The notes under the pieces: generated by a model
The model's database searches: none
Told to the model about the DNA's origin: nothing
What the model saw: only the letters and a program-made list of their open reading frames with translations
In this document: positions 4,618-24,732 of the stretch, in pieces
Numbering within the stretch: position 1 is the stretch's first letter
Layout of the letters: each line of letters opens with the position of its first letter
Position numbers and translations under genes: made by a program
Assembly: GCF_003019035.1 (NCBI RefSeq)
Contig: NZ_CP027447.1
DNA from: Escherichia coli
GTDB lineage: Bacteria > Pseudomonadota > Gammaproteobacteria > Enterobacterales > Enterobacteriaceae
DNA length: 64,000 bases
Direction: 5' to 3' (one strand)

Positions 4618-5937
4618 TTAACCGTGTTTATTTTTCAGTTCAAAGCGTGGAGATACCAGACCATACAGTGTCCAACCAAGGAAGGTCACGATGGAACCGT
4701 ACAGCATGGCTTCTTCCCCGGATGAGTACAGCGCATAGAAACTGTACATCGCACCAACAAAGGCAACAAAGTTTGCTACTTTCGCTTTTGACGGTGGCAC
4801 ATTGGCGACCTGCTGAATAATGACTAACGCCGCCATCGACAGAATATACGGGATGATATTGGTCACCACGGCCAGGTTAACCAGCACGTTGAACTGGCTG
4901 TTCAGTGACGGGCTAATGGTCATCAGTGCCAATCCACTCTGAATAATCACAATGGTCAACATTCCCTGAACCGGTGCATCCACTTTGGTTACACGGGAGA
5001 AAATTTTAGGGAAGTAGCCTTCATCAGATGAAGATTTAAACACCTGGGCAATGGTGAACTGCCAGCCAAGCAGTGAACCGCAGCAGGACATCACCATCAG
5101 CGCCATAATGACTTTACCCACTTCCGGCGTGAACATCTGTGCGAAGGCCAGGCCAAATGGTGCCGTTGAATTTGCCAGCTCCATATTGGGCACAATCCCG
5201 GCAATCACGTTGGTGGAGACGATATAAATCACTGCCGCACCTAACGTACCGCCAAGGACTGCTATTGGCACGTTACGTTCCGGGTTTTCCACTACTTCGG
5301 CGTTGGCACAGGCAGACTCCAGACCGAGGAAAGCCCACAACGTCATGGCGATGGAGGAACCTACAGCGCTAAAGAACGGTACATGATGAGGGTTCCATGA
5401 GTTAGCGTACAGCGTCGGGCTAAACCAGAACCAGCCGATAATGCACAGACCGACGACCGGAATAATGACCCCCCACACAGTAATGCTACTGATTTGCCCG
5501 GTAATGCGCGCACCACCAAAGTTAGCCACGGTACAAATCCACAGCACTCCGATGGTCGCAAGACCAATCTGCACTGGCGACAAACTCGCGCCGAGCAGTT
5601 CGGTGCCGTAACCAACCGCCGAAATAGCAATTGCGACGTTAGCAATCAGCAGCGAGACACCGTAGGTGTAGTTCGCCATAAAGTTACCGGATTTACCGAA
5701 AGCATACTCGGCATAACCGCCCATACCACCTGATTTACGGCTGAACATGCCGCATTTTGCGAATGCCCATGCCAGCGCCATTGAGCCTACGGCAGTCACC
5801 AACCAGGAGATTATTGAGATTGTCCCAACTTCGGCAAGCTTTGTCGGCAGCATGATGATACCGGAGCCCATCATGTTGACCATCGTCAGTATGGTTAACT
5901 GAACGACGCCCATTTTGTTCGATTTAGCCTGACTCAT
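4618..5937 (-). CDS. potE: Putrescine-ornithine antiporter PotE (439 aa)
   Basis: ORF with APC-family membrane protein sequence MSQAKSNKMGVVQLTILTMVNMMGSGIIMLP; overlaps speF stop by 4 nt. Confidence 0.95.
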   Translation of the reverse strand: MSQAKSNKMGVVQLTILTMVNMMGSGIIMLPTKLAEVGTISIISWLVTAVGSMALAWAFAKCGMFSRKSGGMGGYAEYAFGKSGNFMANYTYGVSLLIANVAIAISAVGYGTELLGASLSPVQIGLATIGVLWICTVANFGGARITGQISSITVWGVIIPVVGLCIIGWFWFSPTLYANSWNPHHVPFFSAVGSSIAMTLWAFLGLESACANAEVVENPERNVPIAVLGGTLGAAVIYIVSTNVIAGIVPNMELANSTAPFGLAFAQMFTPEVGKVIMALMVMSCCGSLLGWQFTIAQVFKSSSDEGYFPKIFSRVTKVDAPVQGMLTIVIIQSGLALMTISPSLNSQFNVLVNLAVVTNIIPYILSMAALVIIQQVANVPPSKAKVANFVAFVGAMYSFYALYSSGEEAMLYGSIVTFLGWTLYGLVSPRFELKNKHG

Positions 5938-8132
5938 AATTTTTCCCCTTTCAACAGGATGCTTTGCGCATCACGAGGCTTGATGACATAGCACCAAACT
6001 TGCTTACGACCATCATGTTCTTCGATATAGACACCCTGAAGCTCCGGTGCAAAACCTGGCAGCAGGTTGATCCCTTCTTCCAGAGCGCTGAAGTAACGCA
6101 GAACAGCACCACCCCAGATTTCACCCGGAACAACACACAGCACACCCGGAGGATAAGGAAGCGCACCTTCTGCAGCGATACGGCCTTCTGCATCCGGCAG
6201 ACGAACCAGCTCCACTTCACCGCGTAAATAGGCGTAGTTGGCTTCTTGTGGATTCATGCTGACACGTGGGAAGTGTTCCTTACGAAACATCTCTTTTTGC
6301 AGTTGTTTCACGTTGTGACGGGCATACAAATCATGCATTTCCTGACACAACTGACGCAGGGTATAACCGGTGTAGCGCTCTTCATGCTGTTTGTAGATGG
6401 AAGGCAGTACTTCTGATAATGGCGCGTCGGACTCAAGCAGTTTTTCGAAGCGTACCAGCAGAGCAGCAAGTTGCTGAAGTTTGGCCATATCTTCTGCCGG
6501 AGTCAGCAGAAAGAGGATGGAGTTAAGATCGCATTTTTCCGGCACTACGCCATTTTCGCGCAGGAAGTTAGCAAGAATCGTCGCGGGTACACCGAACGCT
6601 TCATATTCGCCGTTACGTGCATCAATACCTGGGGTTGTCAGCAACAGTTTGCACGGATCGACAAAGTATTGATTCTCTGCATAGCCTTCAAAAGAATGCC
6701 AGTGCTCACCTGGTACAAACTGGAAGAAGCGCAGATCAACCGCAATTTGCGCTGTTTCATACGACTGCCAGGGTTTACCATCCACCAGTTCAGGTACGAA
6801 TGGACGAATATGCTGACAGTTATCGAGGATCAGTTTGCGGGCATTAATGCCATTTACCACACAATCCATCCACATATTACGACCGCTGACACCTTCATGC
6901 ATTTTGGCGTTGATATCCAGTGCGGCAAACAGCGGATAGAACGGGCTGGTGGAGGCATGCATCATAAAGGCGTTGTTCATGCGTTTGTGCGGTACATAAC
7001 GCTGTTGCCCTTTGATATGGCTGTCTTTTTTATGGATTTGTGAAGTCTGGGAAAAACCAGCCTGCTGTTTATGCACAGATTGCGTAACCAGAATACCCGG
7101 ATCGTTCTCATTAAGATCCAGCAACAGTGGTGAACAGTCCGCCATCATCGGGATAAACTGCTCATAGCCGACCCATGCGGAGTCAAAGAGGATGTAGTCA
7201 CACAGATGACCAATTTTATCCACCACCTGACGGGCGTTATAAATCGTACCGTCGTAAGTGCCTAGCTGAATAACGGCGAGGCGGAAAGGACGCGCCTCTT
7301 TTGCCCGCTGCGGTGCGACTTCTGTAATCAGTTCGCGCAGGTAATTTTCTTCGAAGCAGTGGGCATCAATACCACCGATAAAGCCATACGGGTTGCGTGC
7401 GGTTTCCAGATAAACTGGTGTTGCGCCAGCCTGTAGCAACGCTCCGTGGTGATTAGATTTATGGTTATTACGGTCAAACAGCACCAGATCCCCCGGTGTT
7501 AACAGGGCGTTTAAAACCACTTTGTTAGAAGATGAAGTGCCATTTAGAACGAAGTATGTTTTATCGGCATTAAACACTTTTGCCGCATGTTGCTGTGCAA
7601 TGCATGGCGCGCCTTCGTGAATCAGCAGATCGCCCATTGCCACATCCGCGTTGCACAAGTCAGCACGGAACAGCGCCTCACCAAAGTATTCCACAAACTG
7701 ATTCCCCGCCGGATGGCGACGGAAAAATTCGCCGCCCTGATGACCGGGGCAATCAAACGCGCTGTTACCCTGATTGACATAATCGACCAGTGCGCGGAAG
7801 AAGGGCGGGCGCAGTTGAGTTTCATAATGGCTGGCTGCGGTTTCTAACTGACGACCATAAAATTCTCGTCGCGATTCGCAATTCTCAAAGACACCCGAAA
7901 TACGGGGCAAATACTCTGCGGGTACACGTTCTTGATTTTCAGTAGCAATAAATACCGGGATGCCATAACCCGTGGCATCGATTTCATCGAGTTTTCCGCG
8001 TGTAACATCGTTGAGCGATAAAACTATTGCCGCCACATCGATATTACTGTTTTCATTAATATAGATACATTCTCGCTGCGTGGTAAAACAGTCCGGGCAA
8101 GAATCACTAACCGCAATTTTTAATTTTGACAT
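5934..8132 (-). CDS. speF: Inducible ornithine decarboxylase SpeF (732 aa)
   Basis: ORF 5934..8210 with start at MSKLKIAVSDSCPDC; PLP-dependent Orn/Lys/Arg decarboxylase; speF-potE operon. Confidence 0.95.
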   Translation of the reverse strand: MSKLKIAVSDSCPDCFTTQRECIYINENSNIDVAAIVLSLNDVTRGKLDEIDATGYGIPVFIATENQERVPAEYLPRISGVFENCESRREFYGRQLETAASHYETQLRPPFFRALVDYVNQGNSAFDCPGHQGGEFFRRHPAGNQFVEYFGEALFRADLCNADVAMGDLLIHEGAPCIAQQHAAKVFNADKTYFVLNGTSSSNKVVLNALLTPGDLVLFDRNNHKSNHHGALLQAGATPVYLETARNPYGFIGGIDAHCFEENYLRELITEVAPQRAKEARPFRLAVIQLGTYDGTIYNARQVVDKIGHLCDYILFDSAWVGYEQFIPMMADCSPLLLDLNENDPGILVTQSVHKQQAGFSQTSQIHKKDSHIKGQQRYVPHKRMNNAFMMHASTSPFYPLFAALDINAKMHEGVSGRNMWMDCVVNGINARKLILDNCQHIRPFVPELVDGKPWQSYETAQIAVDLRFFQFVPGEHWHSFEGYAENQYFVDPCKLLLTTPGIDARNGEYEAFGVPATILANFLRENGVVPEKCDLNSILFLLTPAEDMAKLQQLAALLVRFEKLLESDAPLSEVLPSIYKQHEERYTGYTLRQLCQEMHDLYARHNVKQLQKEMFRKEHFPRVSMNPQEANYAYLRGEVELVRLPDAEGRIAAEGALPYPPGVLCVVPGEIWGGAVLRYFSALEEGINLLPGFAPELQGVYIEEHDGRKQVWCYVIKPRDAQSILLKGEKL

Positions 8133-17056: not shown

Positions 17057-17243
17057 TATCAGGAAGATGTTCAGAGGAATATTTAGACACCGTTATACCA
17101 ATCGAAACATATATTCATAAAACATATATAAATATTTTCCTAATTGTTTCTATCTGACGGATATCTCACTTAAGGCTTTCTTATAAATCTGTAGGGTTTC
17201 GCCTGTCAGCAGACAAATAACCCGATAAAACAAGGATGAGCAG

Positions 17244-20200
17244 ATGAGCGGAAAACCGGCGGCGCGTCAGGGCGACATGACGCAGTATGGCGGTAGCATT
17301 GTTCAGGGTTCAGCCGGGGTACGTATTGGTGCTCCCACCGGCGTGGCCTGTTCGGTGTGCCCCGGCGGGGTGACGTCCGGCCATCCGGTCAATCCGCTGC
17401 TCGGTGCGAAGGTCCTTCCCGGCGAAACCGACCTTGCCCTGCCCGGCCCGCTGCCGTTCATCCTCTCCCGCACCTACAGCAGTTACCGGACAAAAACGCC
17501 CGCGCCGGTGGGGAGCCTCGGCCCCGGCTGGAAAATGCCCGCGGATATCCGCTTACAGCTGCGCGATAACACACTGATACTCAGTGATAACGGCGGCAGG
17601 AGCCTGTATTTTGAGCACCTGTTTCCCGGTGAGGACGGTTACAGCCGCAGCGAGTCACTCTGGCTGGTGCGCGGCGGCGTGGCGAAACTGGATGAAGGTC
17701 ACCGGCTGGCCGCACTCTGGCAGGCGCTGCCGGAAGAGCTTCGCCTGAGTCCGCATCGTTATCTGGCGACGAACAGTCCGCAGGGGCCGTGGTGGGTACT
17801 CGGCTGGTGTGAGCAGGTGCCGGAGGCGGATGAGGTGCTGCCCGCGCCGCTGCCGCCGTACCGGGTACTGACCGGGCTGGTGGACCGCTTCGGGCGCACA
17901 CAGACGTTTCACCGTGAGGCTGGCGGTGAATTCAGCGGCGAAATCACCGGCGTGACGGATGGTGCCGGGCGTCACTTCCGGCTGGTACTGACCACGCAGG
18001 CGCTGCGGGCAGAAGAGGCCCGGCAGCAGGCCATTTCCGGCGGGACGGAACCGTCCGCTTTTCCTGATACCCTGCCGGACTACACGGAATATGGCCGGGA
18101 CAACGGCATCCGCCTGTCCGCCGTGTGGCTGACGCACGACCCGGAATATCCGGACAACCTGCCAGCCGCGCCGCTGGTACGCTATGGCTGGACGCCACGC
18201 GGCGAACTGGCGGCGGTGTATGACCGCAGCGGCACACAGGTGCGCAGCTTTACTTACGATGATAAATACCGGGGCCGGATGGTGGCGCACCGTCACACGG
18301 GCCGGCCGGAAATCCGTTACCGTTACGACAGCGACGGGCGGGTGACAGAACAGCTAAACCCGGCAGGCTTAAGCTACACGTATCAGTATGAGAAAGACCG
18401 CATCACCATCACCGACAGCCTGGACCGCCGTGAAGTCCTGCACACGCAGGGCGAAGGCGGGCTGAAGCGGGTGGTGAAAAAGGAACACGCGGACGGCAGC
18501 GTCACGCAGAGTCAGTTTGACGCGGTGGGCAGGCTTAAGGCACAGACGGATGCCGCAGGCCGGACGACTGAGTACAGCCCGGATGTGGTGACGGGACTCA
18601 TCACGCGCATCACCACGCCGGATGGCAGGGCATCGGCGTTTTACTATAACCACCACAGCCAGTTAACGTCAGCCACCTGGCCTGACGGGCTGGAAATACG
18701 CCGGGAATATGATGAATCCGGCCGTCTGATTCAGGAAACCGCCCCTGACGGCGATATCACCCGCTACCGTTATGATAATCCACACAGTGACTTCCCCTGC
18801 GCAACGGAGGATGCCACCGGCAGCCGGAAAACCATGACGTGGAGCCGTTACGGTCAGTTGCTGACCTTCACCGACTGTTCCGGCTACCAGACCCGTTATG
18901 ACCATGACCGCTTCGGGCAGATGACGGCGGTGCACCGCGAGGAAGGCCTGAGCCAGTGCCGCGCATACGACAGCCGTGGACAGTTAATTGCGGTGAAAGA
19001 CACGCAGGGCCATGAAACGCGGTATGAATACAACGCCGCCGGTGACCTGACCGCCGTCATTGCCCCGGACGGCAGCAGAAACGGGGCACAGTACGATGCG
19101 TGGGGAAAGGCCGTCCGTACCACGCAGGGCGGGCTGACCCGCAGTATGGAATACGATGCTGCAGGACGGGTCATCCGCCTGACAAACGAAAACGGCAGCC
19201 ACACCACCTTCCGTTACGATGTACTCGACCGGCTGATACAGGAAACCGGCTTTGACGGCCGCACACAGCGTTACCACCACGACCTGACCGGCAAACTTAT
19301 CCGCAGCGAGGATGAGGGGCTGGTCACCCACTGGCACTATGACGAAGCAGACCGCCTCACGCAGCGCACCGTGAATGGCGAAACCGCAGAGCGGTGGCAG
19401 TATGACGAACGCGGCTGGCTGACAGGCATCAGCCATCTCAGCGAAGGGCACCGGGTGACGGTGCATTACAGGTATGATGAGAAAGGCCGCCTGACCGGTG
19501 AGCGCCAGACGGTGCATCACCCGCAGACGGAAGCACTGCTCTGGCAGCATGAAACCAGACATGCGTACAATGCGCAGGGGCTGGCGAACCGCTGTATACC
19601 GGACAGCCTGCCCGCCGTGGAATGGCTGACTTATGGCAGTGGTTACCTGGCAGGGATGAAGCTGGGTGACTCGCCCCTGGTGGAGTACACCCGCGACCGC
19701 CTGCACCGGGAAACGCTGCGCAGCTTCGGCCGTTATGAACTCACCACCGCTTATACCCCTGCCGGGCAGTTACAGAGCCAGCACCTGAACAGCCTGCAGT
19801 ATGACCGCGATTACACCTGGAACGACAACGGCGAACTCATTCGCATCAGCAGCCCGCGCCAGACCCGGAGTTACAGCTACAGCGACTCCGGCAGGCTGAC
19901 CGGCGTTCACACCACCGCAGCGAACCTGGATATCCGCATCCCGTATGCCACGGACCCGGCAGGTAACCGCCTGCCCGACCCGGAGCTGCACCCGGACAGC
20001 ACCCTCAGCATGTGGCCGGATAACCGTATCGCCCGTGACGCGCACTATCTTTACCGGTATGACCGTCACGGCAGGCTGACGGAGAAAACCGACCTCATCC
20101 CGGAAGGGGTTATCCGCACGGATGATGAGCGGACTCACCGGTACCATTACGACAGCCGGCACCGGCTGGTGCACTACACGCGGACACAATATGCAGAGCC

Positions 20201-21443
20201 GCTGGTCGAAAGTCGCTATCTTTACGACCCGCTGGGCCGCAGGGTGGCAAAACGGGTGTGGCGGCGTGAACGGGACCTGACGGGCTGGATGTCGCTGTCA
20301 CGGAAACCGGAAGTGACCTGGTACGGCTGGGACGGCGACCGGCTGACCACGATACAGAACGACAGAACCCGCATCCAGACGATTTATCAGCCGGGGAGCT
20401 TCACGCCACTCATCAGGGTCGAAACTGCCACCGGTGAGCTGGCGAAAACGCAGCGCCGCAGCCTGGCGGATGCGCTTCAGCAGTCCGGCGGCGAAAACGG
20501 TGGCAGTGTGGTGTTCCCGCCGGTGCTGGTGCAGATGCTCGACCGGCTGGAAAGTGAAATCCTGGCTGACCGGGTGAGTGAGGAAAGCCGCCGCTGGCTG
20601 GCATCGTGCGGCCTGACGGTGGCGCAGATGCAAAACCAGATGGACCCGGTGTACACACCGGCGCGAAAAATCCACCTGTACCACTGCGACCATCGCGGCC
20701 TGCCGCTGGCGCTTGTCAGCACGGAAGGGGCAACAGAATGGTGCGCAGAATACGATGAGTGGGGCAACCTGCTGAATGAAGAGAACCCGCACCAGCTGCA
20801 GCAGCTCATCCGCCTGCCGGGTCAGCAGTATGATGAGGAGTCCGGCCTGTATTACAACCGCCACCGCTATTATGACCCGCTGCAGGGGCGGTATATCACT
20901 CAGGATCCTATTGGGCTGAAGGGGGGATGGAATTTTTATCAGTATCCGTTGAATCCGGTTCAGTATATAGATTCAATGGGACTGGCATCAAAATATGGAC
21001 ACTTAAATAATGGCGGATATGGAGCGAGACCCAACAAACCGCCTACGCCCGATCCAAGTAAATTGCCAGACATAGCGAAACAATTAAGACTGCCATATCC
21101 TATTGACCAGGCCAGTAGTGCGCCTAATGTTTTCAAAACATTCTTCAGAGCATTAAGCCCTTACGACTACACACTGTATTGCAGGAAGTGGGTAAAACCA
21201 AATCTGACTTGTACGCCACAGGATGATCCCCAGTATCCAGGGATGGATACAAAGACAGCAAGTGATTACCTGCCACAGACAAATTGGCCAACAACTCAAT
21301 TACCACCAGGATATACTTGTGCAGAACCCTATTTATTCCCAGACATTAATAAACCCGATGGGCCAGCAACAGCAGGGATAGATGATTTGGGTGAAATTTT
21401 AGCTAAAATGAAACAGAGAACATCGAGAGGAATAAGAAAATGA
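17244..21443 (+). CDS. rhsC: Rhs family protein RhsC (1399 aa): N-terminal PAAR-like region, YD-repeat core, PxxxxDPxGL cleavage motif, variable C-terminal toxin tip
   Basis: Repeated YD motifs (YRYDxxGRL), conserved core ending ...[17 protein letters not shown], then about 170 aa Cys/Pro-rich tip; upstream context ybfA as for rhsC. Confidence 0.9.
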
Positions 21444-22009
21444 AAAGAATTTTGTTCTTTTTGCTGATGATATTTGTTAGTTTTGGTGTTATAGCTGATT
21501 GCGAAACACAAGCTAAAGATCAAGATTGCTTTACCATTTTCACTAAGGGTACTATTTTTTCCGCGTTTCCTGTCTTAAATAATAAAACCATATGGAGATG
21601 GTATCAGAATGAGGACATAGGTGAGTATTATTGGCAAACAGAACTTGGTATATGTAAAAATAACAAATTCACACCAAGCGGGGCGAGACTCTTAATTCGC
21701 GTCGGATCACTACGCCTTAATGAAAATCATGCAACCAAAGGAACGTTGCAGGAGTTGCTAAATACAGCAGAAAAAACGGCGTTTCTCGGCGATCGGTTTA
21801 GAAGTTATATAAGAGCGGGTATCTATCAAAAAAAGAGCAGTGATCCAGCTCAGTTGTTGGCAGTCCTTGATAATTCAATCATGGTTAAATATTTTAAAGA
21901 TGAGAAGCCAACTTATGCTCGAATGACAGCACATCTCCCGAACAAAGATGAGTCTTACGAATGTTTAACAAAAGTACAGCATGAACTGCTTCGTAGTGAA
22001 GAAAAATAA
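21440..22009 (+). CDS. Putative RhsC immunity protein with signal peptide (189 aa)
   Basis: ATGA overlap with rhsC stop; N-terminal signal peptide [19 protein letters not shown]; AT-rich. Confidence 0.7.
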
Positions 22010-22177
22010 AATCTCTTCCTGAGAAAATAAATTAACTATTCGAAAAAATATGTTCTTAATGGGTATCCAGGTACACCAGAAGGTCGATTTGGAAAAATGG
22101 ATTCCGATGGTAAGAATATCATATATTCTGAATGTAATGTTTTACCCACAACTTTTGAGATTCGATAGGTGTAGAGC

Positions 22178-22480
22178 ATGAGAAACTCACTAATATTACT
22201 TATTATGATATTGTTTACAATATCACACTCAGTATTTGGAAAAGAAAATTCAGTGGAAATTTTAGTAAATAGTCGTGAAATGGCTTTGGAATTATCATAT
22301 GTTTACATTAAATATGTATACGGGAAAGAAAAAGCAGAATTTCAGAAACCATATAGTATTACAGATGACAATAATTGTTGGAAAATCGAGGGAAAACAAC
22401 CGAAGACGTTAGGAGGAAATTTTACAATACTAATAGCGAAAAAAGATGGGCAAGTGTTGAATGTAATACACACAAAATAA
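22178..22480 (+). CDS. Small secreted hypothetical protein, possible orphan immunity protein (100 aa)
   Basis: Signal peptide MRNSLILLIMILFTISHSVFG; AT-rich; preceded at about 22060-22170 by an in-frame peptide-like remnant (GYPGTPEGRFGKMDSDGKNIIYSECNV) lacking a start. Confidence 0.45.
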   Translation: MRNSLILLIMILFTISHSVFGKENSVEILVNSREMALELSYVYIKYVYGKEKAEFQKPYSITDDNNCWKIEGKQPKTLGGNFTILIAKKDGQVLNVIHTK

Positions 22481-22823
22481 TCCACTGTACAGTCGATTCA
22501 AATATTTTACCAAGGTGTGTTTTGTAACAATTTTGTGTACAATATGACTCTACATATCGACGAAAAAACCACTTGATTTGACAGGAACACATTCAAAAAA
22601 ATTTCTTTATTCATTTCAGGAGCGATTTTCATCTGTTACTTGAAGTATCTGTGAGATTAAGTGACTCCCCCTAACGTCGTACTAAATAGTAATTACTGTC
22701 CATACCGGGAGCAGTATTCGGCGCTCCCCACATGCAGCAGAATAACCGCATCAGCGAAGATGTATTGTATTTTTACTATCACAATGTGTACGGACGGTTT
22801 ATGGAAAAGAATGAAAATTAGAT

Positions 22824-22992
22824 ACGCGATGGGGCGGCAGGTTACACGGTTATCACTACGATAGCCAATACTGGCTGGTGCATTACCGCCGTGAACAATA
22901 GGACGCCGTACTGCTGGAAATTTCTTACCTTTATGACTCCCCGCGCCGCCGTATTGGGAAACGGGAAGCAATCAAGATGAGGCTGATATAAT
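22824..22992 (+). pseudogene. Degraded Rhs core remnant with in-frame stop
   Basis: Translation YHYDSQYWLVHYRREQ*DAVLLEISYLYDSPRRRIGKRE parallels RhsC core [45 protein letters not shown]. Confidence 0.65.
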
Positions 22993-23031
22993 GTGCGGAA
23001 TGCCTGAGTATTTTTAGAATAGGGGGGTAAT

Positions 23032-23433
23032 ATGTTTGATAGAATATATCTTGGTGATCGAGCAATAAAAAAAATTGAATTTTATTTATGGACTAAACAA
23101 ATTAGAATTCAGGTTAATTTAATCTCAAGGATAGCCTATGGTACAACAGAATGGAATTTTTATGATAATGAAGACTTAGAAGATGGTTATTTGGTATTTT
23201 CAGATGTTAGTTTCTTCAATATAACTCCTAATGGCTCTATTCCTGATGATTATATAATTTCAATAATTACAGATAATGTCAATGTTGAATATTTTGAATC
23301 AACTATAGTTGCAGTTGGACAAATTCCAAATACAAATTCTGGAGACATTGATAATATTGGTGAGTGTCAAATTTTCATCAGGTATAAACACAGCTGGATT
23401 GAGAATAAATTCAAAGAAAAAATAATTGAATAA
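23032..23433 (+). CDS. Hypothetical protein, possible orphan Rhs immunity protein (133 aa)
   Basis: AT-rich ORF with ATG start (gggggtaatATG) between two Rhs remnants; no signal peptide; no recognisable family. Confidence 0.4.
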   Translation: MFDRIYLGDRAIKKIEFYLWTKQIRIQVNLISRIAYGTTEWNFYDNEDLEDGYLVFSDVSFFNITPNGSIPDDYIISIITDNVNVEYFESTIVAVGQIPNTNSGDIDNIGECQIFIRYKHSWIENKFKEKIIE

Positions 23434-23548
23434 CCATGTTATGTATAGACATTTTAGATGGAACGAACCAGAGGAAGGCATGCCTCCGACTTGGGTTATA
23501 TGGGCACGGAGTTTTAGTGTAGTGAACTCAACGACGCAAACCGAATAA

Positions 23549-23739
23549 CCTGCCGCTGGCGCTTATCAGCACGGAAGGGGCAACAGAATGGTGCGCAGAA
23601 TACGATGAATGGGGCAACCTGCTGAATGAAGAGAACCCGCACCAGCTGCAGCAGCTCATCCGCCTGCCGGGTCAGCAGTATGATGAGGAGTCCGGCCTGT
23701 ATTACAACCGCCACCGCTATTATGACCCGCTGCAGGGGC
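23549..23739 (+). pseudogene. Orphan Rhs core 3' fragment, direct repeat of rhsC 20699-20889
   Basis: 191 bp with 2 mismatches versus rhsC (encodes [63 protein letters not shown]); no start codon; diverges after PLQG so the DPIGL motif and tip are lost. Confidence 0.85.
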
Positions 23740-23883
23740 CAGGGAAAGATCACGTAACGCTGCTTTTTTGTACTAAATAATTCGCATTTTATGTTTAAAA
23801 ATTGAGATATTCCTCATTACCTAAAGCTGTTTTTCATTGCTTATACATGATCAAATACTCCTTACATAATTAAGGAGAACAAA

Positions 23884-24732
23884 ATGGAACTTAAAAAATT
23901 GATGGAGCATATTTCTATTATCCCAGATTACAGACAAGCCTGGAAAGTGGAACATAAATTGTCTGATATTCTACTGTTGACTATTTGTGACGTTATTTCT
24001 GGTGCAGAAGGTTGGGAAGATATAGAGGATTTTGGGGAAACACATCTCGATTTTTTAAAACAATATGGTGATTTTGAAAATGGTATTCCTGTTCACGATA
24101 CCATTGCCAGAGTTGTATCCTGTATCAGTCCTGCAAAATTTCACGAGTGCTTTATTAACTGGATGCGTGACTGCCATTCTTCAGATGATAAAGACGTCAT
24201 TGCAATTGATGGAAAAACGCTCCGGCACTCTTATGACAAGAGTCGCCGCAAGGGAGCGATTCATGTCATTAGTGCGTTCTCAACAATGCACAGTCTGGTC
24301 ATCGGACAGATCAAGACGGATGAGAAATCCAATGAGATCACAGCTATCCCGGAACTTCTTAACATGCTGAATATTAAAGGAAAAATCATCACAACTGATG
24401 CGATGGGTTGCCAGAAAGATATTGCAGAGAAGATACAAAAACAGGGCGGTGATTATTTATTCGCTGTAAAAGGAAACCAGGGGCGGCTAAATAAAGCCTT
24501 CGAGGAAAAATTTCCGCTGAAAGAATTAAATAATCCAGAGCATGGCAGTTACGCAATGAGTGAAAAGAGTCACGGCAGAGAAGAAATCCGTCTTCATATT
24601 GTTTGCGATGTCCCTGATGAACTTATTGATTTCACGTTTGAATGGAAAGGGCAGCCATGGACAGAAAATATCTGGCGTCAGTCCTTGCGGGGAGCGTGCT
24701 TTCGTAATTTTGCCCTGCTACAACAGGATTAA
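23884..24732 (+). mobile_element. H-repeat-associated protein / ISAs1-family transposase, apparently C-terminally truncated (282 aa)
   Basis: [52 protein letters not shown] typical of E. coli H-rpt (YbfD/YhhI) proteins; shorter than the full-length family (~378 aa). Confidence 0.75.

Follow-up and report, generated by a model that had tools for sequence, protein, structure and literature searches.

The turnover of Rhs toxin tips is known to leave orphan immunity genes behind, and models for such arrays have been published (PMC2935791, PMC3150448, PMC5361080). In the E. coli table of Jackson et al. (2009, PMC2935791), the kdpA-phr site is listed as locus 5, and the dissociated core fragments reported there belong to the same clade as the attached gene. 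For the arrays of orphan immunity genes in the type VI secretion (T6SS) loci of Vibrio cholerae, Kirchberger et al. (2017, PMC5361080) proposed a homologous crossover upstream together with an illegitimate join downstream. The pairing of the Tox-JAB-2 (DUF4329) toxin domain with Imm-NTF2-2, a curated immunity family, has also been published (Zhang et al. 2012, PMC3482391).

We compared these systems with the sequence behind rhsC in a 64,000-nucleotide stretch of Escherichia coli DNA (contig NZ_CP027447.1, assembly GCF_003019035.1), which we call the window and whose positions are used throughout. The window holds the kdpA-ybfA-rhsC-ybfC-...-ybgA-phr locus, a type of locus already known and annotated in hundreds of E. 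coli genomes. What lies behind rhsC is very probably the worn remains of at least three former toxin/antidote cassettes, two of whose antidote genes are intact, numbered here as modules 1 to 3. With the arrays of Jackson and Poole (PMC2935791, PMC3150448) it has AT-rich tip and immunity sequences in common, but modules 1 and 2 are without core and nearly without toxin, and module 3 has lost its tip to an insertion sequence (IS). Its one diverged core scrap has only about 50% identity to the resident core, unlike the fragments of Jackson et al., which are of the same clade as the attached gene. As in the V. cholerae arrays, immunity genes outlast effector replacement and the old effector 3' end is left ahead of them, although the carrier here is Rhs rather than VgrG-linked effectors, the organism is a different one, and IS-adjacent deletions shape the array.

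The rhsC-ybfC locus and the sequence behind it

The resident pair, rhsC and ybfC, stands upstream of the array on the same strand, with the ybfC start overlapping the rhsC stop by 4 nt (Table 1). Here rhsC is the active gene, with the array attached to its end. YbfC has a hydrophobic N-terminus and no Pfam match, and is presumably the immunity protein of the attached RhsC tip. Tip and immunity sequences have a GC content of 27-33%, against 63% in the core.

Table 1. Features of the rhsC locus in the window, with the basis of each assignment
Feature	Position	Strand	Basis
rhsC, full-length, 1399 aa	17244..21443	+	ORF list; PGAP 'RHS element core protein' in identical genomes
ybfC, 189 aa	21440..22009	+	annotated ybfC in K-12, Sakai, a B strain
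Module 1 toxin remnant, last 45 codons and stop of Tox-JAB-2/DUF4329 Rhs tip	22031..22168	+	homology to L005 Rhs
Module 1 immunity gene, 100-aa ORF, Imm-NTF2-2 domain at aa 35-100	22178..22480	+	Pfam PF15631
Module 1 non-coding tail	22481..22599	+	87% identity to L005 module
Mid-core Rhs remnant, strongly diverged	22732..22964	+	tblastn of RhsC
Module 2 toxin remnant, last 18 codons and stop of 'tip X'	22961..23017	+	end of Z142-6 Rhs
Module 2 immunity gene, DUF6258, 133 aa, intact	23032..23433	+	Pfam PF19772
Module 3, first 191 bp of a further orphan, rhsC-type core fragment	23549..23739	+	direct repeat of 20699-20889
ISEc1 (ISAs1 family, 'H-rpt'), both inverted repeats	23740..24720	+	mapped against annotated ISEc1 of O157:H7 Sakai

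The array is not a chance pattern: of 5,426 complete E. coli genomes, 878 have the block 22031-23548, as a single copy and with 95-100% conservation. The four features named in the original prediction (a peptide-like remnant, an Rhs core piece, a 133-aa ORF and a 191-bp repeat) all exist; two boundaries had to be corrected, and one feature, the toxin tail at 22961-23017, had been overlooked. Searches against Rfam and, for defence systems, with PADLOC gave no match, and a scan for promoter-like sites found 9 where 10.5 were expected, that is, no enrichment.

The same site in K-12, the rhsC-ybfB-ybfO(rhsO)-ybfC-ybfQ-ybfL-ybfD region, likewise carries a ybfO-type tip, ybfC and ISEc1 (ybfD) with the same deletion next to ybgA; window positions 19938-22051 are 97% identical to K-12 ybfO plus ybfC. 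Unlike the window, K-12 has an extra attached tip with ybfB, ahead of a 1-kb core fragment, orphan ybfO/rhsO, whose tip is the one that ends RhsC in the window. Sequence 22052-23738 is lost from K-12, where the H-rpt copies ybfQ and ybfL are found instead. Judged from these alignments, the comparison is one of textbook displacement at this locus.

Toxin tails, immunity genes and core fragments

Module 1 is a Tox-JAB-2/Imm-NTF2-2 pair reduced to its immunity half. Its toxin remnant, which reads INYSKKYVLNGYPGTPEGRFGKMDSDGKNIIYSECNVLPTTFEIR followed by a stop codon, is in frame but without a start codon. At the DNA level it is 91% identical to the 3' end of an Rhs gene that is intact in the E. 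coli drafts L005 and L006; the homology begins exactly at 22031. A start-less, in-frame remnant had been proposed at about 22060-22170; it is real, and slightly longer than was thought. The tip of the intact gene matches Pfam DUF4329 at 114 bits, while the remnant alone covers model positions 86-111 of 116 with an E-value of 0.18, short of the cut-off. A complete DUF4329 domain, with its E, H[ST]H, S, D motif, is not present: the remnant has lost the catalytic H[ST]H...SxxD, whose counterpart in the intact L005 tip, HTH...SPAD, falls immediately before the point of the break (22031).

The ORF behind this tail matches the full Imm-NTF2-2 model (positions 1-68) at 73.1 bits against a cut-off of 26. 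It starts 9 nt past the toxin tail and is 84% identical to the 100-aa gene that stands, with identical spacing, behind the intact Rhs-DUF4329 toxin of L005/L006. On this homology and adjacency, the NTF2 ORF is taken to be the immunity partner of the Tox-JAB-2 tip. Its N-terminus is hydrophobic and, by hydropathy, signal-peptide-like; PGAP calls only a 75-aa form starting at 22253. A PDB sequence search with the ORF found no match. Homology to the L005 module stops at 22599, and a close Tox-JAB-2 tip extending beyond its 138-bp tail occurs in none of the 5,426 complete E. coli genomes searched.

Between modules 1 and 2 lies a scrap of older core. Aligned to RhsC by tblastn, it falls into two pieces in different frames, 22732-22815 (aa 923-950, 39% identity) and 22839-22964 (aa 963-1004, 55% identity), with a joint E-value of 2e-11. 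A frameshift and a TAG at 22899-22901 interrupt it, and its counterpart in RhsC is aa 923-1004, in the middle of the core rather than at its 3' end. The original prediction had seen a core piece with an internal stop at 22824-22992; the piece and its stop stand, but the limits move, and 22961-22992 is not core at all, being instead the tail of the second toxin in another frame. No parent of this scrap was found: it is about 52% identical to another E. coli Rhs, a HMMER search of 1.84 billion representatives returned nothing above about 52% identity except ORF calls of 55 and 29 aa, and low-stringency blastn against the 5,426 E. coli genomes did not find 22600-22959 outside this array.

The toxin tail of module 2 reads TGSNQDEADIMCGMPEYF, then a stop. 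It is 100% identical to the end of an intact 1423-aa Rhs protein of E. coli Z142-6, whose unnamed toxin domain we call tip X, and 83% identical to the end of a Citrobacter sedlakii Rhs. The predicted 133-aa ORF behind it is real and belongs to Pfam DUF6258 (87.1 bits, cut-off 25, model positions 9-96 of 136). In Z142-6, a gene whose product is identical to it at 131 of 133 residues follows the intact Rhs-tip X with the 14-nt spacing seen in the window, and over the whole of 22960-23739 the window and the sequence following that Rhs gene are 99% identical. Cognate toxin tips, which the original prediction had suggested looking for in other genomes, were found for both orphan ORFs, on intact Rhs proteins of L005/L006 and of Z142-6. 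Over the long term, both ORFs also show purifying selection, with dN/dS of 0.22 for the NTF2 domain and of 0.10-0.12 for DUF6258 against Citrobacter and Salmonella. That they serve an unrelated function, for instance as small exported proteins, is very improbable: the hydrophobic N-terminus of the NTF2 ORF would suit it, as would the lack of an experimentally known function or a PDB relative by sequence for DUF6258, but both ORFs sit directly behind polymorphic Rhs toxin tips in several genera, Imm-NTF2-2 is a curated family paired with Tox-JAB-2, and neither defence-system nor RNA families gave a match.

Module 3 is the direct repeat of rhsC, with 2 mismatches in 191 nt, just as had been described. 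The repeat codes for RhsC aa 1153-1215. Its last residues are YYDPLQG, 6 codons short of DPIGL, and ISEc1 follows directly with its left inverted repeat from 23740, which confirms the junction with a truncated H-repeat transposase. The same sequence is contiguous, at 98-99% identity over 22960-23739, in the genomes L019, L022 and L023, where the fragment continues into an RHS tip and yibG. The element has both terminal inverted repeats (left CAGGGAAAGATCA..., right ...TTTTGCCCTG), which match the annotated ISEc1 of Sakai, and a transposase of the ISAs1 type (NCBIfam transpos_ISAs1, NF033564, 292 bits). It carries a 312-bp internal deletion, and its truncated transposase ORF (ybfD, 23884-24732) has 282 aa against 378 aa in the intact ISAs1 copies of L005/L006. 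The two copies of the 191-bp repeat could possibly serve as a substrate for RecA-dependent deletion of tip and array.

Distribution, decay and origin of the array

The array is trimmed differently from lineage to lineage. The left junction of ISEc1 differs in position: 22051 (K-12), 23458 (Sakai), 23622 (a B strain) and 23739 (the window). The right side of the element and its 312-bp deletion are common to the window, the B strain and K-12. From these alignments, deletions next to the IS appear to account for the differences. DUF6258 contains an A8 tract (23067-23074) that is prone to slippage and is frameshifted there in O157:H7 Sakai, which has a further stop, in a B strain and in a copy at the rhsB locus. 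Exact matches to the frameshifted A7 81-mer occur in 415 genomes, against 146 for the exact A8 82-mer; by this count the gene appears to be frameshifted in most carriers, with the window among those in which it is intact. The long NTF2 ORF is likewise damaged in these three, and its defects include loss of the start codon (B strain), an early stop (Sakai) and, in L020, a 2-nt deletion. For selection on the orphan state within E. coli, substitutions are too few for dN/dS: the window and L022 differ by 1 synonymous and 2 nonsynonymous changes. One apparent diverged relative with the NTF2-DUF6258 order, L009 (Logan ERR3201946), was rejected, as scattered single-base homopolymer indels show that it is this E. 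coli array again, in a contig of noisy long reads.

The preponderance of A7 over A8 argues against sustained selection on the orphans, and it is one of several observations that would be expected if the array were inert debris, decaying, with both ORFs intact by recency or chance, unexpressed and giving no protection. The A-tract frameshifts in Sakai, the B strain and the rhsB-locus copy, the further stop in Sakai, the damage to the NTF2 ORF, the unenriched promoter-like sites, the absence of a close Tox-JAB-2 toxin from the complete genomes and the loss of the whole block from K-12 point the same way. Against this, both ORFs are full length in the window, DUF6258 differs at 2 of 133 residues from a copy that sits beside an intact toxin, 57 complete E. 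coli genomes have at least 80% of the length of that toxin's tip, long-term dN/dS is low, and orphan immunity genes are reported as protective in other systems (PMC10539506). We consider a wholly inert array a serious contender, at somewhat under even chances.

With high confidence, we favor instead the view that orphan Rhs toxin/immunity modules are decaying here, as an array, behind the active rhsC-ybfC pair. Each module would go back to a toxin tip that formerly stood at the end of an rhs gene. A new tip with its immunity cassette would have recombined into the conserved core, and the old tip would have been pushed downstream or cut away. The old immunity gene would survive, presumably because a cell without it falls victim to toxin-bearing siblings. 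Nearly all toxin sequence would then have been lost to later deletions, some of them next to ISEc1 at the right edge, leaving the Tox-JAB-2 tail with the Imm-NTF2-2 gene, the old mid-core scrap, the tip X tail with the DUF6258 gene, and the beginning of a third orphan. This order of events is inferred.

The original prediction had called the stretch a footprint of successive C-terminal displacement. At its core this reading holds: the pieces are leftovers of tip turnover with orphan immunity genes, intact toxins with the same gene families behind them exist elsewhere, and each gene has its own toxin tail upstream, two tails where one had been seen. Modules 1 and 2, however, do not look like the product of clean whole-tip displacement. 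Strict C-terminal displacement predicts a core fragment, which both lack; without usable core, and with toxin sequence down to 45 and 18 codons, they look rather like cases in which an effector was replaced and joined illegitimately at its 3' side, or in which deletion came later, and their history needs extra deletions or illegitimate joins. A complete orphan has a core fragment including PxxxxDPxGL followed by a tip, and module 3 is cut short of that motif. None of the three is complete; all are what is left of orphan modules.

The array has also moved between rhs loci. Window positions 17243-23602 are collinear, at 96.5% identity, with an array at the rhsB locus between nikR and yhhJ, and 22960-23739 recur, at 98-99% identity, downstream of rhsA in 2013C-3264 and Z142-6, where the right part of the array sits behind an active toxin. 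Because the same array occurs at the rhsB locus and its right part at the rhsA locus, it was not necessarily built in place. Alternatively, and with less than even probability, the block may have come together at a different rhs locus and reached rhsC ready-made, through recombination between the near-identical rhsA/B/C cores; these matches fit this alternative, as does the fuller tip X orphan of ETEC1748, at the rhsC locus. Yet such copying is compatible with the tip turnover that we favor, which still had to build the block somewhere; the comparisons do not tell the direction of transfer, and most carriers, going by those inspected at the rhsC locus, have the array there.

The result is mainly a clean-up of annotation, in which two unannotated stretches become toxin tails, and it leaves the current understanding of Rhs systems unchanged. 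With the tails identified, each orphan immunity gene can be linked to one particular toxin, which gives a prediction of the attackers that the strain might resist. If expressed, as we suppose both to be, the two intact ORFs may neutralize incoming Rhs-Tox-JAB-2 and Rhs-tip X from other strains. Protection is plausible in this strain but would not be general across carriers, because DUF6258 is frameshifted in most of them and complete genomes hold no close Tox-JAB-2 tip beyond its tail. The comparison of lineages also gives a picture of array erosion by IS-adjacent deletion and homopolymer slippage.

DUF6258 and tip X

A modestly new point is that DUF6258, for which a literature search found no paper, can be assigned by conserved neighborhood to an uncharacterized toxin domain as its putative immunity partner. 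The gene follows tip X homologues in gammaproteobacteria (E. coli, Citrobacter sedlakii, Rahnella sikkimica) and in the betaproteobacterium Diaphorobacter aerolatus, and it also occurs in orphan arrays of Salmonella. We tentatively suggest that DUF6258 is a dedicated immunity family of tip X, that tip X may be a metal-dependent nuclease, that the orphan might protect against E. coli carrying most of the tip, which make up roughly 1% (57 of 5,426 complete genomes), and that the A8 tract could be a frequent on/off mutation site for this protection.

PDB sequence searches with DUF6258 and with tip X gave no match, and tip X has no match in Pfam. The best fold match of DUF6258 is an uncharacterized Neisseria protein (5v77, E-value 6.5e-3). 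An AlphaFold model of tip X (pLDDT 73.5) has a weak Foldseek match to a chain of 8owu (E-value 0.017, TM 0.61 on the target), a PT7 DNase/PIM7 complex in which the matched chain may be the toxin or the immunity protein, so that the match serves as a lead only. Tip X is histidine-rich and is found on Rhs, PT-HINT and stand-alone proteins of beta- and gammaproteobacteria, Leptospira and Ensifer.

Toxin tails and immunity genes of the array

The array downstream of rhsC combines toxin tails, immunity genes, and core fragments (table); the tips and small ORFs have a GC content of 27-37%, down from ~63% in the Rhs core. The original prediction of a start-less, peptide-like remnant and two immunity-like ORFs is borne out, the ORFs encoding Imm-NTF2-2 and DUF6258. 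Alignment of 22031-22599 to the module of two E. coli drafts (L005 and L006; 91% identity) begins exactly 45 codons before the toxin end, which identifies the remnant as the tail of a Tox-JAB-2/DUF4329 toxin. In both drafts, the NTF2 gene lies 9 nt downstream of a full Rhs protein with a DUF4329 tip. The remnant lacks the HTH...SPAD motif, whose position in the intact tip is immediately before the break at 22031. Imm-NTF2-2 is listed as the immunity partner of Tox-JAB-2 (Zhang et al. 2012, PMC3482391), and equally long relatives of the NTF2 protein occur in other E. coli at 84-86% identity. Close intact Tox-JAB-2 tips are rare: of 5,426 complete E. coli genomes, 841 contain the 138-bp tail, and none contains more than that of a close intact tip.

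Features of the array and its flanks, in window coordinates
Feature	Position	Description	Basis
rhsC	17244-21443	1399 aa, intact	
ybfC	21440-22009	4-nt overlap with rhsC end	
Module 1 toxin remnant	from 22031	last 45 codons of Tox-JAB-2/DUF4329 toxin	alignment to L005/L006 locus
Imm-NTF2-2 ORF	22178-22480	complete domain at residues 35-100	73 bits
Rhs core remnant	22732-22815, 22839-22964	RhsC aa 923-950 and 963-1004; two frames, linked	tblastn with RhsC
Module 2 toxin remnant	22961-23017	last 18 codons of tip X	identical to Z142-6 Rhs end
DUF6258 ORF	23032-23433		87 bits
Direct repeat	20699-20889, 23549-23739	191 bp; RhsC residues 1153-1215, ending YYDPLQG	2 mismatches
ISEc1 (ISAs1 family, H-rpt)	23740-24720	left inverted repeat begins at 23740, base after repeat	

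Signal-peptide-like hydrophobic starts are present in both the NTF2 ORF (22178-22280) and YbfC (21440-21500). The literature predicts that Tox-JAB-2/DUF4329 is a cytoplasmic nuclease or RNase, with which the signal-like start of its immunity ORF contrasts. The NTF2 start called by PGAP is an internal ATG (22253) beyond the hydrophobic segment, and dN/dS is 0.89 in the first 34 codons versus 0.22 in the domain.

Only one toxin-tip fragment had been predicted; that tail stands, and a second was missed, being in a different frame from the core remnant, whose end it overlaps. This second tail belongs to a toxin domain that we call tip X. At the rhsA locus of E. coli Z142-6, an intact 1423-aa Rhs protein ends in TGSNQDEADIMCGMPEYF, identical to the window tail; a DUF6258 gene lies 14 nt downstream, and its product matches that of the window at 131/133 residues. 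E. albertii, Citrobacter, and Salmonella encode DUF6258 proteins of the same length (80-92% identity); Citrobacter sedlakii has the gene 15 nt downstream of an Rhs protein gene, and homology to the window begins at 22960, within the last 18 codons of the toxin. Rahnella sikkimica and Diaphorobacter aerolatus likewise encode DUF6258 immediately downstream of a tip X homologue, so gene neighborhood supports well the assignment of the two as a putative toxin-immunity pair.

Tip X (source region 5900-6544 of the Z142-6 locus, L022; also L024 and L025) matched no model in a Pfam search. It is a conserved histidine-rich domain of ~105 aa, with D61, H63, and H87 invariant and H80, H89, and H119 near-invariant, found on RHS, PT-HINT, and stand-alone proteins of Rahnella, Diaphorobacter, Leptospira, Ensifer, and metagenomes. 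In E. coli and Rahnella, tip X is further extended at its C-terminus by a helical stretch of ~55 aa that includes the 18-codon tail, and at least 80% of tip X is present in 57 complete E. coli genomes. Its AlphaFold model (pLDDT 73.5) weakly resembles one chain of the complex of PIM7 with PT7, a metal-dependent DNase, and that of DUF6258 (pLDDT 80) is an all-beta fold whose only notable PDB neighbor is 5v77, an uncharacterized Neisseria protein. Both modeled resemblances are leads rather than findings.

Constraint and decay of the orphan immunity genes

Long-term constraint on both immunity genes is clear from dN/dS, which is 0.10-0.12 for DUF6258 (compared with Citrobacter and Salmonella) and 0.22 for the NTF2 domain. 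Orphan copies decay nonetheless. The long NTF2 ORF is without its start in a B strain, is cut short by a stop in Sakai, and carries a 2-nt deletion in the array copy L020. DUF6258 lacks one A of an A8 tract (23067-23074) in Sakai, where there is an additional stop codon, in the B strain, and in a copy at the rhsB locus. Among 836 genomes with the DUF6258 5' end, the exact A7 81-mer occurs in 415 and the exact A8 82-mer in 146, a further diverged group being likewise A7; all copies adjoining an intact or near-intact toxin are A8. The identical loss occurs in array copies differing by up to 8%, and DUF6258 of Citrobacter and Salmonella has no A tract (ATCAAGAAAATC), which suggests that slippage has recurred at a homopolymer specific to E. 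coli, as opposed to a single ancient event.

Both ORFs are intact in the window. It is plausible that the orphan DUF6258 protects against attackers bearing Rhs-tip X. For Serratia Rhs systems, a protective role of orphan immunity proteins against non-self effectors has been proposed (PMC10539506).

Core fragments and probable erosion next to ISEc1

The degraded core piece predicted at 22824-22992 exists (joint tblastn E-value, 2e-11), with a TAG at 22899-22901, and is placed differently, as two segments (table). Within E. coli, 22600-22959 occurs inside this array only, as a single, unannotated copy in 844 genomes. The translation is ~50% identical to any Rhs core, another E. coli Rhs included, with no better match among 1.84 billion protein representatives; the scrap is probably either ancient or derived from a distant rhs lineage. 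Spacers 22600-22731 and 23481-23548 contain no recognizable coding or RNA signal and have no homologues outside the array or an rhsA-locus block.

The near-perfect 191-bp repeat of rhsC and the truncated H-repeat transposase were both correctly predicted. The transposase ORF is cut to 282 aa by loss of 312 internal bp relative to the annotated ISEc1 of O157:H7 Sakai, which is full-length with its left junction elsewhere. ISEc1 in the window keeps both inverted repeats and is an old, immobile copy, because the identical deletion is found in the B strain and K-12 ybfD. 2013C-3264, Z142-6, and ETEC1748 contain window 22960-23739 uninterrupted, at 98-99% identity. Its core fragment runs into another tip and then yibG in the first two; for ETEC1748 the annotation lists just a partial RHS fragment. 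In the window, ISEc1 has probably removed the sequence beyond 191 bp. The left IS junction, in window coordinates, falls at 22051 in K-12, where the whole block 22052-23738 is gone, at 23458 in Sakai, at 23622 in the B strain, and at 23739 in the window. The right side and internal deletion are common to the window, B strain, and K-12. The simplest reading is that serial deletions adjoining the IS end have eaten into the array.

Probable displacement, distribution, and source lineage

Compared to the window, K-12 has an extra tip and ybfB at rhsC, followed by a 1-kb core fragment joined to the tip of the window. This is the pattern expected of C-terminal displacement (PMC2935791), or of displacement reversed by recombination, so that the window would either predate the displacement or derive from the K-12 state by recombinational deletion. 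The tip on the window rhsC (19938-22051, with 3' core and ybfC) corresponds to the orphan pseudogene ybfO (rhsO) plus ybfC in K-12. The original reading of successive displacement is essentially right. The anatomy fits models of Rhs tip turnover (PMC2935791, PMC3150448); the toxin-tail and immunity units also fit the model of effector replacement proposed for immunity arrays of V. cholerae (PMC5361080). By E. coli standards the locus is ordinary, and it does not depart from these frameworks.

Among the 5,426 complete E. coli genomes, 878 carry block 22031-23548 at 95-100% identity, nearly always as a single copy. The same array also lies at the rhsB locus (nikR-yhhJ) of NMBU_W05E18, together with the attached tip and ybfC seen in the window; all or part of the array therefore moves among the near-identical rhsA/B/C cores. 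In Salmonella enterica (L010-L012, 2000-12000), the DUF6258 gene lies within a long array near yafT containing Rhs core fragments, tips (e.g., ADPRT Tse2-like and TseH-like), and small ORFs, so that orphan-array architecture recurs in another genus.

The window has the E. coli neighborhood kdpA-kdpF-ybfA-rhsC-...-ybfD-ybgA-phr. Over 1-25000, only 13 complete-genome records reach at least 99% identity, the next best being ~96.5%; the source strain is thus from an E. coli lineage with sparse sampling. Window 21400-24900 matches DETEC-S792 at 100% and SCU-301 at 99.8% identity, and PGAP calls the same features in both. In SCU-301, the closest genome, rhsC is annotated as frameshifted.
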